Shown: one piece after another, positions 5,887 to 58,930 of the stretch
How the letters are laid out: every line of letters begins with the position of its first letter
How positions within the stretch are numbered: the first letter of the stretch is position 1
DNA from: Candidatus Gastranaerophilales bacterium
Lineage (GTDB): Bacteria; Cyanobacteriota; Vampirovibrionia; Gastranaerophilales; Gastranaerophilaceae
Length of the DNA stretch: 64,000 nucleotides
Reading direction: 5' to 3'
Assembly: GCA_944326605.1 (NCBI GenBank)
Contig: CALVEM010000005.1
Span: 20,447 to 84,446, forward strand
Made by a program: the position numbers and the translations under genes
The notes under the pieces: generated by a model
Told to the model about the DNA's origin: nothing
Database searches by the model: none
Seen by the model: the letters and a program-made list of their open reading frames with translations, nothing else

Positions 5887-6699
5887 TTATTCCGCTATAT
5901 TCGTATACGGCGAAACTGTCAAAGGTGCTGAAAGTTTCAGCTCAAACGTAGTTCCGTCGGGAATATTCACATCACGTCCTCTTTGCATTGCTCCGCGTAA
6001 TCCTCCGCCTAAAGCTCCAACACCGCCATAGATTAACATATTTCTTCCCCAGTCATCGCCGCCGCCAAGTGCTGTGAAGGCGGCTCCTATTAACATGGTT
6101 CCGAGAGCGCCGACAACAATATCTCTTGTCATTTTTTTAGCGCGTTCATTTTCCTCTTCCATATAAATTTTTTCTGTTGAAATATCAATCAGATTGCCGT
6201 CAGGAGTTAAAATTTGATTAAAACTGAATTCCACGGCGCCGCTTCCGTATGCATAACCTGCATTTTGCGCATCTGTAGCCGTGCCGTATACAAGACTTCC
6301 CGCAGGTGCTATTAAAACTCCGTTATATACAAAATTTTCAGTTAGTGTCGCTGTTAATCTGTCGTCTTTTTCCAGACTGCCGGAATTTATTCCGGAATCA
6401 AAGGTGATTTTGAAAACAGTGCCGGCAGGAATTTGAACAACATTTCCGGTAAGGGTTCGGGGGGGGGGCGGCTCATAAGTATTATTTAAAATCTCTTCCT
6501 GTATAATTGGCGGATTATAATTCGTTCTGTCCTGATGTTCTCTTTTTTTATAAAAATTATTTTCAACCGGTGCGGATTGGACGGGCTGAAACCTTTTTCT
6601 GTCAAATTCCGCCTGTGCCTCATCGCTGAAATCATATTCAGCCAGAACAGGAAGTGCTAATATTTGAAAACTTATTAAGAGAGCCAGAATCTTTTTCAT
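5887..6699 (-). CDS. Secreted protein with glycine-zipper segment; contains an in-frame C10 tract
   Basis: Signal peptide MKKILALLISFQILALPVLA; IPAGT...IPAGS beta domain and GALGGGLRG zipper; C10 encodes EPPPPR. Confidence 0.7.
   Translation of the reverse strand: MKKILALLISFQILALPVLAEYDFSDEAQAEFDRKRFQPVQSAPVENNFYKKREHQDRTNYNPPIIQEEILNNTYEPPPPRTLTGNVVQIPAGTVFKITFDSGINSGSLEKDDRLTATLTENFVYNGVLIAPAGSLVYGTATDAQNAGYAYGSGAVEFSFNQILTPDGNLIDISTEKIYMEEENERAKKMTRDIVVGALGTMLIGAAFTALGGGDDWGRNMLIYGGVGALGGGLRGAMQRGRDVNIPDGTTFELKLSAPLTVSPYTNIAE
6459..6468 (-). repeat. Homopolymer C10 (G10 on + strand) inside a CDS
   Basis: Directly counted, 6459-6468. Confidence 0.9.
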
Positions 6700-12012: not shown

Positions 12013-12631
12013 TCCTGTGGTTTTATTAAATTTGTGCACCATGCGCGACAAAAATACGGATAGTCAGGGGGTTAGAATTGCGACAAGAAAAATAACGAGA
12101 TGTCTTTTATACGAAGCAGCAAAAAATCTTCCGCTTGTTGACAAAGAAATAACCACTCCGTTAACAACATTTACTGCAAAAACGGTTGACCCTAATATTA
12201 ATCTTATAATATCACCGATTTTGCGTGCAGGACTTATATTTACGGATGAAGCTATTGATATTTTGCCGCAGGCGTGCATTAGGCATATAGGAATGTACAG
12301 GGATGAAAAAACTCTGAAACCTGTGTGGTATTATAATAAAGTTCCTATGGAAGCTCCAAATCCAGAAAAATTCTATATTTACATAACTGATCCTATGCTT
12401 GCAACAGGAAATTCTCTGATAGAAGCTATAAAACTTTATGCTGATAAAGGGATTCCGATTGAAAACATAAAAGTAATATGTATAATTGCAGCTCCTCAAG
12501 GGATTGAAAATATTCAAAAACACTATCCTGATATAGAAATCATAACAGCGGCAGTCGATGATCACTTAAATGAAAAAGGTTATATCGTTCCCGGTATGGG
12601 TGATGCCGGAGATAGGATTTTTAATACTTAA
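11981..12631 (+). CDS. upp: Uracil phosphoribosyltransferase
   Basis: PILRAGL, DPMLATGNS, GYIVPGMGDAGDR. Confidence 0.97.
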   Translation: MNKEKVRIINNPVVLLNLCTMRDKNTDSQGVRIATRKITRCLLYEAAKNLPLVDKEITTPLTTFTAKTVDPNINLIISPILRAGLIFTDEAIDILPQACIRHIGMYRDEKTLKPVWYYNKVPMEAPNPEKFYIYITDPMLATGNSLIEAIKLYADKGIPIENIKVICIIAAPQGIENIQKHYPDIEIITAAVDDHLNEKGYIVPGMGDAGDRIFNT

Positions 12632-12633
12632 TA

Positions 12634-12662
12634 TTGAAAAGATTATATATATGTATTATAAT
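12634..12662 (+). promoter_or_regulatory. Sigma-70 promoter of pilin locus A
   Basis: TTGAAA (12634-39)-N17-TATAAT (12657-62); AAAGGAG RBS then ATG 12693. Confidence 0.75.
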
Positions 12663-12692
12663 GCAGGTTATAGTATTCAGAAAGGAGTAGTT

Positions 12693-13915
12693 ATGAAAAG
12701 ATTATTAGAATTAATTGAAAGTTTCGGGGGGGGGGCTTTGTAGGCTCCGCCGGAGGCAAAGAAGCAGCTAGAAGCAAAGATGCTAAGAGGCGAAGATGCG
12801 AAGCAAGTATCATTTACGTCATCCTGAACTCGTTTCAGGATCTATTAACTAGAAACAAAGATGTCAAGAGGCGAAGACGCGAAGCTAATATCAATAATAA
12901 CTTATGTTGCAATTTTCCCAAAATAACTATAAATGAATACCCTTTGCAAAGTGAGCGCTCTCCATTCAGTGAGTGTGCTACGCACGTAGTCCTGTCGAAT
13001 AATTCATGTCAATTCTCACTAAATTATTGTGAGGTTAGTGCTCACCCATCCGGCACGATGTGCCACCTTCTCCCGCACAGGGGAGAAGGAAATGAACTTC
13101 TAAAACACGGAGGTCAATCCGACGTTCATGAGATGCTGAAACAAGTTCAGCATGACATGTTTAACTTTTTGAAACGAACTTATTCACTTATTAACCTATT
13201 TACTTATTCACCTCGTAAAAGCGCAGCATTTACGCTAGCAGAGGTTCTCATCACCCTCGGTATCATCGGTGTTGTTGCCGCTATGACTATGCCTGTTTTA
13301 ATCGGGAATTACAGGAAAAATGTTGTTGAAAATCAATTGAAAACTGTTTATTCATTAATTTCAAATGCTGTAAGAATGGCGGAGATAGATAACGGAGAGG
13401 GGTTTATGTTCGCAGTCGGCGAGGAGTTTGATAATGATAAGAATAATAATTCTTTTGAGCAGAGTGAAGCTGTATTTAATGCATATTTTAGAAGATACTT
13501 TAAGATAATTAAGGATTATCCAAAAAACAATGACATTTTTCTATCACGCGGATTTACTAAAAACAGCACAGCAACTGATGAAACAAATTATGCAAAATGC
13601 GTTCAGTTAGCTAACGGAATTGCATTATGTTTTTTCCCGAAGGGTGGAAATAGGGGACAATTTATTGTTTATTTAAATCCTGATAAGAAAAATAAAATAG
13701 ACGGCCGAGATGTGTTTGCATTTCGTCTGTCAAGAGATAGAGGTGCGTTCTTTCTATCACAAAACCTTGATGTTTCAAGAGAAAAATTAATTGAGGGTTG
13801 TGTAAGTTCAGATCCGCATCCAATAAGTACGGATTTGCTTCGCCCGGATGTATGTACTTTCTTAATAATGCAAAATAATTTTGAAATACCTGATGATTAT
13901 CCGGTAAGTTTTTAA
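12693..13915 (+). CDS. Type IV pilin/pseudopilin-like protein, locus A, frameshifted at G10 (putative phase OFF)
   Basis: ATG 12693 reads MKRLLELIESFGGGAL*; the frame of ORF 12944..13915 is stop-free back to the G tract; G11 or G8 fuses them; AAFTLAEVLITLGIIGVVAAMT at 13223 onward. Confidence 0.85.
12726..12735 (+). repeat. Homopolymer G10 at codons 12-15 of pilin locus A
   Basis: Directly counted. Confidence 0.95.
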
Positions 13916-13934
13916 TAATTATCTTGGATAAAAA

Positions 13935-14891
13935 TTAAATTGAGATTTTTATTTCTCCGACAATTTTGCCGTTAATAGTATTTATACTTTTGTTAAATTC
14001 AATGTCTGCCCAGTGAAGATTTTTCAAAATCTGTAAAACAACCATTTCACGTGCTTTCATATCACAATCTGCAATTTTTACAACAAAAGCTTCTTCATTT
14101 TCTGTATTAACCGCTATGCAAAGTCCGCCCGCGCCGACTTTTGCAATAATTCTTTTGGAATTTTCAATAATTTTGGTATCTGTTCTGTCTTCTCCGCCTA
14201 TTATATAAGGGTGGTTGAGAAAAGCATTTTTAATTTTTTCGTACTCCGGATTACAAAATACATTTAAATAGCCGTGAAGCATATTTGTAAGCGGCATAGA
14301 CATAATAGGGACACCGCAGCCGTCAGTTGTCACCGGATATTCCTTTGCAAGCCGGCAAAGTTTTGTAATTTTTTCTTTTATTGCGAGCTGAAGGGGATGC
14401 TCAGGACTGTCGTAAGTTTTTAAATCCCAATTTTTTAGCTTGCAAAGTCCGAGCATCATAATATGCTTGCCTGAACAGTTATTTTGTAAAATATTTTCAG
14501 CCGTACCTGATATAAGCATACGTGTTTGTTCCGTTTTTGAAAGTGGTTTGTGCAAACCGCATTTTAAATAACTTTCATCCAAACCAATTTTATCAAGAAG
14601 CCGTTTTGCGGTATTTATATGGATTTCTTCCCCTGCATGGGAAGCGCAGCACAGAGCAATTTCCTCCTCTGTCATATCATAAAATTTATCCATCCCGTAA
14701 TCTATAATGAGTGTAGCTTGGAGTGGTTTTGCACATGAGCGCAAATAGAAAGGATAATTTTTTGTATCACCGGTGAAATCAAATGCACGATTTTTGTCTG
14801 AAAGTACAATAAAACCGTAATGTTCCTGTTCAACAAGTCCATCTCTTATATATTCAACTAATAGTTCCGGTTCTGTATTATTGCTGTGCAT
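13935..14891 (-). CDS. L-asparaginase II family protein
   Basis: RSCAKPLQA, CASHAGE, NNCSGKH, DGCGVP, AKVGAGG motifs of the asparaginase II family. Confidence 0.88.
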   Translation of the reverse strand: MHSNNTEPELLVEYIRDGLVEQEHYGFIVLSDKNRAFDFTGDTKNYPFYLRSCAKPLQATLIIDYGMDKFYDMTEEEIALCCASHAGEEIHINTAKRLLDKIGLDESYLKCGLHKPLSKTEQTRMLISGTAENILQNNCSGKHIMMLGLCKLKNWDLKTYDSPEHPLQLAIKEKITKLCRLAKEYPVTTDGCGVPIMSMPLTNMLHGYLNVFCNPEYEKIKNAFLNHPYIIGGEDRTDTKIIENSKRIIAKVGAGGLCIAVNTENEEAFVVKIADCDMKAREMVVLQILKNLHWADIEFNKSINTINGKIVGEIKISI

Positions 14892-57751: not shown

Positions 57752-58930
57752 TTAATTAATAAAGTCTCCTGTCGCATCATAATTTATATAATTTAATTTT
57801 TCGTCAGTTAATACTGATTCTATTTTTGTATGCCAGTTGCTAATTTTGTTGTTAGTAATAATAAAACTATAGGCATCGGCGCCGAGCTGATTTGGACCTT
57901 TAAGTCCGTTAGCATCAATAAACATTACCCCGCATTGTTTTTGATAAGTTTCTGTTGTTTCGTAACCTCCGTTGCCGTCAGGAATCCAGTTGCCATCTGC
58001 ATCTGTAACTTTATTAGTAAATATTCTTCCGCATTTACTATCTCCGCCTACATAAGGATTTATTGCGATTATAGAGCCATCGGCAAGTACAGCTTTAGAA
58101 TAATTTTTAATTGAATGAGTGGCATTTTTCCCTTTGCCGTCATTGTATGCTTTCGGATATTTATAATACTCCGGAGCACAGCCTGATGAGCCAGGTTTAC
58201 ATATTTGAGCAGTATTTAAATATGAAAAAAATTCATTAACTAACTCATCTTTTGTTTTTGTTTGAATAAATATATCTGCATAATCGTATGCCCCTTCATC
58301 AAATTTCCACCTGTTCATAGCATTCAGAACTGTAGAATATGTTTTTTAGTTTGAGTAGCAAATACTTTATTTTTATAATTTGCAATTAACGCAGGCATAG
58401 TCAATGCCGCAACAATTCCGATAATTCCAAGGGTGATTAAAACCTCAGCCAAAGTAAATGCGGTGTGACGGACATTGTCAGTGGTGTCTACGTGCGTAGC
58501 ACCTTCTGCTAGAGTAAACGCGACTTTTTTATGGGGAGAATAAGTAAATAAGTGAATAGGAGAATAAGTTCGTTTCAGGATCTTATGAGATCCCGAAACA
58601 AGTTCGGGATGACGGATTGCTGCCTCTCCTATGGGAGAGAACTGGGGTGAGGATTGATTTTCACCCTCACCTTTACTTCCCCTCCCCTCAAGGGAGGGGA
58701 TATTTTTTTCTCCTCTCTCCCCAAAGGGGCGAGAGTTAGTGTGAAGAAACAGCGTAGCCGTTCCATCCGACACACGGATTTTGCATGAATTTTTCAGGTC
58801 ATTCTGGGCGAAGCGAAGAATCGCATTACCGTCACGATTATGCGAATGCCTTAGCTCTAAAACACTGTAATCCCTTGTTACATCTTTATCCTGTTGGGGG
58901 GGGGCAACTCAAAGCTTCTCTATTAAACAT
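57752..58930 (-). pseudogene. Type IV pilin-like protein, locus D: C9 frameshift in the leader plus a second frameshift at A6 in the mature domain
   Basis: GGAGG RBS, ATG 58930 reads MFNREALSCPPPTG*; C8 or C11 opens the leader into ORF 58324..58773; adding one A at T6 58342-47 joins it to ORF 57752..58318 (KKTYSTVLNAMNR; IDANGLKGPNQLGAD). Confidence 0.85.
58896..58904 (-). repeat. Homopolymer C9 (G9 on +) at codons 9-12 of pilin locus D
   Basis: Directly counted. Confidence 0.95.

Follow-up and report, generated by a model that had tools for sequence, protein, structure and literature searches.

The stretch analysed here, called the window below, comprises 64,000 nucleotides (nt) of the genome of a Candidatus Gastranaerophilales bacterium (assembly GCA_944326605.1, contig CALVEM010000005.1, positions 20,447 to 84,446 of the forward strand); coordinates without a label refer to the window. 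Our subject is a gene at 12634-13915, locus A, which is predicted to encode a type IV pilin-like protein behind a very long leader, and whose reading frame runs through a tract of ten G residues (G10). It lies between upp, encoding a uracil phosphoribosyltransferase (PF14681), and an asparaginase II gene (PF06089). The features of locus A are the following.

12634-12662, plus strand: sigma-70-like promoter TTGAAA-N17-TATAAT, which agrees with the consensus at 11 of 12 positions and is the top match within 12500-14100
12634-12639 and 12657-12662, plus strand: the -35 (TTGAAA) and -10 (TATAAT) elements of this promoter, separated by a 17-nt spacer, as read from the sequence
12681-12687 and 12693-12695, plus strand: Shine-Dalgarno sequence AAAGGAG and start codon ATG, as read from the sequence
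12726-12735, plus strand: G10 homopolymer, putative frame gate; OFF as assembled, in frame at G11 (or G8, G14)
12741-12743, plus strand: TAG closing the 16-codon OFF-state peptide MKRLLELIESFGGGAL, from translation in the frame of ATG 12693
12737-13228, plus strand: leader without stops in the frame of the pilin, comprising 164 codons downstream of the tract and, at G11, 179 codons altogether
12763-12843, plus strand: 81-nt (27-codon) leader unit, present in 0, 1 or 2 copies by strain (alignment of nine orthologous leaders; repeat families D5 and D2)
12818-12842, plus strand: hairpin of the repetitive extragenic palindromic (REP) type within the 81-nt unit, read as VILNSFQDL (repeat families D5 and D2)
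12974-12975, plus strand: site of 198 extra in-frame nt in orthologue L003 (alignment of orthologous leaders)
13130-13156, plus strand: second REP hairpin, in the opposite orientation, read as EMLKQVQHD (repeat family D3; hairpin census)
13180-13211, plus strand: four 8-nt tandem units encoding RTYSLINLFTY, directly before the cleavage site
13226-13231, plus strand: predicted prepilin cleavage site A↓F (RKSAA↓FTLAEV), with a class III signal motif (F at +1, E at +5) ahead of a hydrophobic helix
13229-13915, plus strand: mature pilin-like protein of 228 amino acids plus stop (DUF6613; PF20318, E 8e-7)

The pilin frame of locus A is open from 12737 to 13912, and the length of the tract within the open reading frame (ORF) sets the frame in which it is entered from ATG 12693. 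With G10, translation ends at the stop at 12743. With G11, 11 codons, 4 Gly codons and 164 further codons add up to 179 leader codons before the F at 13229, and the whole becomes an ORF of 407 codons. A preliminary description made from the sequence alone had placed the promoter, ribosome-binding site, ATG 12693 and G10 where we find them, and had derived from G11 the 179-codon leader ending before F at 13229. It had also noted that the TTG start at 12944 lacks an evident ribosome-binding site, and no Shine-Dalgarno sequence is present upstream of it. Likewise, the upp-asparaginase interval was said to hold no mobility gene, as is the case; the idea of a mobile cassette was considered and set aside. 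The 57-amino-acid ORF that gene callers report at 12570-12743 (plus strand) is an artefact: it begins at the end of upp, crosses the promoter and continues into the OFF-state mini-ORF. It was called in 8 of 12 orthologous assemblies, and 46- or 66-amino-acid variants were called in three more.

The design of locus A recurs throughout the genome. In the 2.05 Mb surveyed (26 contigs, 35% GC), G/C runs of exactly 6, 7, 8, 9, 10, 11, 12 and 16 nt number 17, 3, 1, 10, 74, 2, 1 and 1, respectively. Length is exactly 10 in 74 of the 88 runs of at least 9 nt, an excess far beyond the chance expectation for a genome of 35% GC. We counted as a census locus any ATG with a Shine-Dalgarno sequence that is followed by a tract, an open frame to a site of the A↓FTLAEV type, and a pilin-like domain of more than 100 amino acids, and 68 tracts share this design. 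Across these loci, the ATG lies 19-72 nt (mostly 24-36) ahead of the tract, the Shine-Dalgarno sequence is of the GGAG/GAGG/AGGA type at 62 and of the weaker AAAGG type at 6, and each locus has its own promoter-like sequence, which is of the TTGAAA-N17-(TG)TTATAAT type upstream of most G-type paralogues. One added base is needed to bring the pilin into frame in 57 of 59 length-10 tracts, two bases are needed in all five length-9 tracts, and both length-11 tracts are in frame as they stand; overall, the in-frame length is 11 at 64 of the 68 loci. Three further loci of the same design lie in the window, at 24854-63 (C10 on the coding strand), 38686-95 (G10) and 58896-904 (C9). Many contig ends fall 5-130 nt from a G/C10 tract (C7:5-14, C8:80-89, C7:111174, C20:26274), and relatives show the same pattern. 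Short-read assemblies are broken by the repeat-rich leaders, and the true number of loci is therefore probably higher than 68.

Tract length changes at the DNA level, as a paralogue of locus A at C23:3375 shows: its tract is G10 in the present genome and in-frame G11 in assemblies L001 and L002 from other samples, within 6.4 kb of 99.97% identical sequence. The G11 alleles encode the full M...FGGGG-TVGSAGG...pilin protein, a full-length ON form that is present in public data, and further public proteins begin with the upstream Met and the Gly run. Together with the common rule of one in-frame length at 64 of 68 loci, this pair of alleles supports the suggestion in the preliminary description that G10 acts as a switch. 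In 19 species genomes of the genus, tracts of 9, 10, 11 and 12 nt number 98, 806, 76 and 33 (1013 in total), and other genera of the order have 0-3 length-10 tracts each. Of the 13 G11 pilin tracts at loci sampled in other species of the genus, 9 were in frame. A set-point of 10 does not hold throughout the genus, because the tracts of one species (G003; L041-L060) are longer: their modal length is 12, and lengths 10, 11 and 12 are represented by 12, 15 and 18 tracts, respectively; its in-frame class is 11 or 14, as elsewhere.

The predicted product of locus A resembles a type IV pilin or pseudopilin, a likeness that is supported by the signal motif and by the encoded machinery but not by the length of the leader. 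The mature part scores above the cut-off for DUF6613 (PF20318; 29.6 versus 24.3), and over its first 57 residues it shows a resemblance to GspG (TIGR01710) and ComGE that stays below the respective cut-offs (22.8 bits versus 88.85 and 21.8 versus 49); for PF07963 (N_methyl) there was only a precomputed match labelled weak. The class III motif is present (RKSAA↓FTLAEVLITLGIIGVVAAMTMPVLI), and cleavage is predicted at A↓F. Among 30 homologues, A4, E5-G11, I13 and G14 do not vary, and conservation at F1-L3 is at least 90%. An AlphaFold (AF2) model of the mature protein (mean predicted local distance difference test score 83.8) has a 53-residue N-terminal helix (residues 3-55) and a beta-sheet head of 5-6 strands. 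The genome encodes a prepilin peptidase of family A24 (C1:233147-233536), four T2SSE ATPases scoring above the cut-off, and a secretin (C5:117600).

We conclude that locus A is probably a slipped-strand, phase-variable prepilin gene that is OFF in this assembly, and that its cytoplasmic, cleaved leader tolerates in-frame insertions of repeats. In the proposed sequence of events, translation would be started from the gene's own promoter, strong Shine-Dalgarno sequence and ATG, 11 codons before the tract. With G10, ribosomes would stop after 16 codons, leaving the gene OFF, and replication slippage to G11 would join the ATG to the 179-residue leader and the pilin, turning it ON. The basic leader, which lacks a hydrophobic segment, would stay in the cytoplasm while the FTLAEV... 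helix inserts into the membrane, and the leader would then be removed at A↓F by the prepilin peptidase of this genome. With tracts at a common length of 10, one below ON, few of the approximately 68 members would be expressed in any one cell. The sequences themselves show the anatomy, the frame rule, the open leaders, the in-frame indels, the G10/G11 polymorphism at a paralogue and the polarity of the tracts; the rate of switching, its occurrence within populations, the use of the promoter, cleavage at A↓F, the display of the product on the surface and the purpose of the variation are inferred.

Several points weigh against this conclusion. Eleven further assemblies of the same species that span upp, the pilin gene and the asparaginase gene were found in other samples through identical flanking or product proteins, and the tract of locus A is G10 in ten of these and G9 in one. 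G11 is therefore absent from locus A in all 12 assemblies (eleven G10, including the window, and one G9). Of the eight alleles of the C23 paralogue, three have frameshifting deletions, which reflect either decay of an OFF gene or misassembly and collapse in repeats; the deletions in these alleles (L062, L063, L064) lie at a REP hairpin or across the AFTLAEVLITLG leader/pilin junction. The peak at length 10 across the genus (806 of 1013) is sharper than free slippage would give, which suggests that a strong mutational set-point or selection is needed. To our knowledge, there is no precedent for a prepilin leader of 179 residues. Moreover, the residue at -1 is Ala in locus A and in most paralogues instead of the usual Gly, which occurs in some. 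Finally, the best Foldseek match of the modelled protein in the PDB is weak and not significant (Dichelobacter nodosus FimA, E 0.1, TM-score 0.26-0.35), and no significant structural match in the PDB was found by Foldseek for the DUF6613 head domain.

The orientation of the tracts follows a strand rule. Of 88 tracts, 84 have their G run on the GC-skew-positive strand, as do 57 of the 58 at which the absolute skew exceeds 0.03. With respect to this strand, 46 of 47 G-type genes are co-directional and 19 of 21 C-type genes are head-on. The identity of the run is thus fixed in the DNA and depends on gene orientation in the mRNA, which suggests a process at the level of replication. A more elaborate interpretation is that the tracts form a tuned repertoire: they would be held at one base below ON, with G on the leading strand and with Gly and Pro versions of the leader to suit either orientation, giving directional, replication-coupled, sparse activation of a few of the approximately 68 genes per cell. 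The leader would in addition offer a protected zone in which REP modules land and recombine, reshuffling cassettes of promoter, tract and leader between paralogues, and/or slippage during transcription or translation would allow some low-level expression through G10. We regard this fuller interpretation as possible but unlikely.

The same strand rule is also the strongest objection to the view that slippage of the ribosome or of RNA polymerase is the primary mechanism. According to this second alternative, which we consider improbable, G10/C10 would be a slippery site for programmed recoding, at which RNA polymerase adds one base or the ribosome shifts by -1 (G GGG GGG or C CCC CCC), and the loci that we call OFF would be expressed at a low, set level. 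The extreme uniformity of tract length, both in the genome and in the 19 species, is in keeping with recoding, as is the finding that nearly all tracts need exactly the +1 that a -1 ribosomal shift or a one-base insertion in the RNA would supply. A possible hairpin (CTTTG...CAAAG around GGCTCC..GGAGGC) also follows the tract of locus A. However, the sequences downstream of the tracts belong to several unrelated families and share no common structure across loci, and polarity tracks the replication strand instead of the mRNA, as expected of a DNA-level and not of an RNA-level process. Moreover, G11 alleles that are in frame occur in nearly identical DNA, the modal length is 12 in one species, and efficient slippage would harm the non-pilin genes that contain an in-frame G10.

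Comparison of the orthologous assemblies bears on a third alternative, which is that locus A is silent or decaying, permanently OFF, and at most a sequence donor for recombination with expressed paralogues. The absence of G11 among the 12 assemblies fits this alternative, as do an additional 1-nt deletion before the tract in one allele (L013), a leader start in another (L014) that looks converted from a paralogue, the deletion-broken C23 alleles, and a truncated mature part in another locus of the window (locus D, described below). By contrast, the upstream ATG and the tract, whose joint absence from orthologues the preliminary description had named as one of the findings that would count against it, were kept in all 11 orthologous assemblies, and the promoter was kept in the 9 whose upstream sequence was compared. 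Complete alleles thus retain the promoter, Shine-Dalgarno sequence, ATG, tract, open leader and an intact 228-amino-acid ORF, the last in 7 of 7 cases. Among these seven alleles, the mature domain contains 7 synonymous and 6 amino-acid-changing polymorphic codons and no stop or frameshift, where a ratio of about 3:1 in favour of non-synonymous changes would be expected without constraint. Although the numbers are small, they suggest some purifying selection on the mature domain. In addition, an assembly reports only the majority length of a tract, and rare ON cells would therefore escape notice. We give permanent silence a slimmer chance than recoding, and retain phase variation as the probable explanation.

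The preliminary description had proposed a synteny check of the interval between upp and the asparaginase gene, and all same-species assemblies hold the cassette there. In a distant relative (L016; approximately 85-86% identity in the flanks), the same gap contains a different pilin-like gene on the other strand (L016:3148-4119, minus strand), which lacks a homopolymer and whose 132-residue leader begins MKKEVFTLAED.... Because a different gene without a tract occupies the gap in this relative, the gap is, by sequence comparison, a replaceable slot. A scan of JGI metagenome contigs for the start of locus A followed by eight G residues gave no match.

The leader is very likely translated, because it contains no stops, its indels are all multiples of 3, and no internal Shine-Dalgarno sequence and start are conserved. 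Summed over the 68 loci, the leaders comprise 6060 codons, none of which is a stop in the pilin frame, compared with 398 and 515 stops in the other two frames, and all 48 long leaders are stop-free, compared with 0.2 of 48 predicted by mononucleotide shuffles. The nine complete orthologous leaders of locus A have 138, 164, 165, 191 or 231 codons after the tract, and they differ by indels of 3, 81, 162 and 198 nt, all in frame. Among the loci, the distance from tract to cleavage site varies from 7 to 231 codons, and the whole leader from about 20 to about 245 amino acids; the short leaders of the family are ordinary prepilin leaders that contain Gly3-4 or Pro3-4. The 48 long leaders all have a net charge between +2 and +19 (+8 in locus A) and no transmembrane-like or hydrophobic segment, and a basic, non-hydrophobic leader should therefore remain cytoplasmic ahead of the signal-anchor helix. 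The leader peptide of locus A has no match in Pfam or NCBIfam.

These data leave very little room for a fourth alternative, in which 12737-13228 would be an untranslated, structured 5' leader, the pilin would be translated from an internal start (ATG 13156, or TTG 13168 or 12944), and the mini-ORF from the ATG through G10 would be a regulatory upstream ORF. The leader does share hairpin repeats with intergenic DNA, gene callers do place starts inside this stretch, and a product beginning MFNFLKRTYS...AA↓F would have a leader of normal length. However, besides the absence of stops and of out-of-frame indels, the internal candidates lack a Shine-Dalgarno sequence, and a Shine-Dalgarno sequence with a start occurs in frame in only 6 of 48 long leaders, compared with 11 and 9 in the two other frames. 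Furthermore, the last 60 codons lack an in-frame ATG in 18 of the 48 long leaders, and Rfam, at gathering thresholds, matched only two tRNAs in the whole window and no RNA family over the leader. An internal start near the cleavage site was rejected, since the candidates have no preceding Shine-Dalgarno sequence and show no enrichment in frame.

The least credible alternative is an assembly or sequencing artefact in which true G11 tracts were undercalled by one base: homopolymers of at least 10 nt are error-prone and contigs often break beside these loci, but length 10 is real, given that at least five non-pilin ORFs in this assembly contain a G/C10 run in frame; in addition, lengths of 9, 11, 12 and 16 are also called, G10 at locus A recurs in independent assemblies from at least three naming schemes, and the same pipelines give G11 at another locus. 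One such non-pilin run lies in the window at 6459-6468 (minus-strand gene), where C10 on the coding strand is in frame at residue 92 of a 285-amino-acid ORF (...YEPPPPRTL...), which is ON at length 10. Further in-frame G/C10 runs are at C2:3445, C2:120805, C4:50277 and C3:13884; they include glycosyltransferase-like ORFs (judged by eye only) and one ORF of 1010 amino acids.

The long leaders of this putative prepilin family are rich in repeats. We counted as REP-type hairpins perfect seven-pair structures of the form xxxxGAA-loop-TTCxxxx with covarying stems. The genome contains 258 of these, of which 50 (19%) lie within leaders, which make up 0.9% of the DNA. Hairpin density per kb is 2.74 in leaders, 0.021 in other long ORFs and 0.51 in the remaining DNA, and leaders are thus approximately 130-fold richer in hairpins than other ORFs. 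Within leaders, the hairpins occur only in the three combinations of orientation and frame that are stop-free, which read as (V)ILNxFQD, HPELxSGS and (E)ILKxVQDD, and locus A holds one hairpin in each orientation (12818-12842 and 13130-13156). Because it would be discarded, the leader should be constrained only to stay open and in frame, and such light constraint would allow palindromic REP-like modules and tandem units to accumulate and to vary between strains. The discarded leader would then be the sole coding region that tolerates such repeats, provided that the frame is kept. Two Y1_Tnp (HUH transposase) genes, at C6:51449-51808 and C4:32158-32475, are candidate spreaders of the REP-like hairpins.

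Four 8-nt units, in a loose octamer pattern encoding RTYSxIxLFTYS, precede the cleavage site at 26 of the 68 loci, and a second family (RTYRPNVLTSYRL) has the same design of four 8-nt units. As a second switch, this array was rejected: the copy number appears constant, at four in the 26 loci and in all alleles of locus A. The sole deviation is an in-frame loss of 24 nt at one locus.

The proposed switch is of the known contingency-locus type. In Neisseria, about 11 dispersed opa loci, each with its own promoter, carry CTCTT repeats in the region coding for the signal peptide, and frameshifts turn them ON and OFF independently without altering the mature protein. The family described here resembles opa in being a dispersed family of predicted surface proteins with a slippage-prone repeat in the coding region of a cleaved leader. 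Unlike opa, its repeat is a G/C homopolymer instead of a pentamer, its signal is of class III (prepilin) instead of Sec type I, and it numbers about 68 loci instead of about 11, nearly all at one length, which is one below ON; moreover, its leaders reach about 245 residues and are built from REP-like repeats. Neisseria pilC1 and pilC2 and the phasome of Campylobacter jejuni have poly-G or poly-G/C tracts of about 8-13 nt near the 5' ends of ORFs, which vary by slipped-strand mispairing. There are many such loci in a small genome, and tract lengths cluster at about 9-10, presumably through biases of insertion and deletion. In contrast to these systems, a single paralogous pilin-like family holds most of the tracts here, the in-frame length is 11 at 64 of 68 loci, and polarity obeys the replication strand and is accommodated by Gly- and Pro-coding versions of the leader.

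With type IV pilins and type II pseudopilins, which are cleaved by PilD/GspO, the predicted protein shares A↓FTLAEV with F at +1 and E at +5, a hydrophobic helix of about 20 residues, the predicted long N-terminal helix with a beta-sheet head, and a genome that encodes peptidase A24, a secretin and T2SSE ATPases. It differs from them in its leader (179 residues in locus A compared with about 5-30), in Ala instead of Gly at -1, and in a DUF6613 head that has no significant match among solved structures. The leader hairpins resemble REP elements and bacterial interspersed mosaic elements (BIMEs), which are mobilised by REP-associated tyrosine transposases (RAYTs; Y1 HUH): each is a short, imperfect palindrome with a covarying stem, and hundreds of copies occur in this genome, which has two Y1_Tnp genes. 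REP elements are, however, extragenic by definition, and 50 of the hairpins here lie in apparently translated leaders, in stop-free frames only. No description of this system was found in the literature on pilins, phase variation, homopolymers or DUF6613 in Gastranaerophilales/Melainabacteria. What sets this family apart from the classical contingency loci is the scale of about 68 loci, the single in-frame length, the strand rule and the long prepilin leaders built from REP-like repeats.

Gastranaerophilales, which are related to cyanobacteria, are common in the gut and still uncultured, and next to nothing has been established about their surface biology. About 68 independently switchable pilin-like genes, occupying approximately 3% of a 2-Mb genome, would imply strong, fluctuating selection on the cell surface, for which host immunity, phages and changing attachment targets are candidate pressures. 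Tract lengths would provide testable markers of population dynamics in metagenomes. The data also suggest that a class III leader may be ten times the usual length and consist of junk-like repeats, which bears on the requirements of prepilin peptidase and of membrane insertion. For annotation, gene callers systematically place the starts of these genes at an internal TTG or ATG and call spurious 57-amino-acid ORFs, and pilin genes that appear frameshifted in these metagenome-assembled genomes are not pseudogenes.

Two other arrangements in the window concern this family. Locus D (58344-58930, minus strand) has a C9 tract that needs two bases, and its pilin-motif frame closes approximately 44 residues after the tract, which constitutes a second lesion, in the mature part. 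At 58458 and 59780 (minus strand), and also in proteins P0006 and P0056, the cleavage motif is duplicated in the form ...AFTLAE-GATHV(~10 amino acids)-A↓FTLAEV..., and this module resembles an insertion of about 45 nt with a duplicated target, inside the start of the pilin gene.

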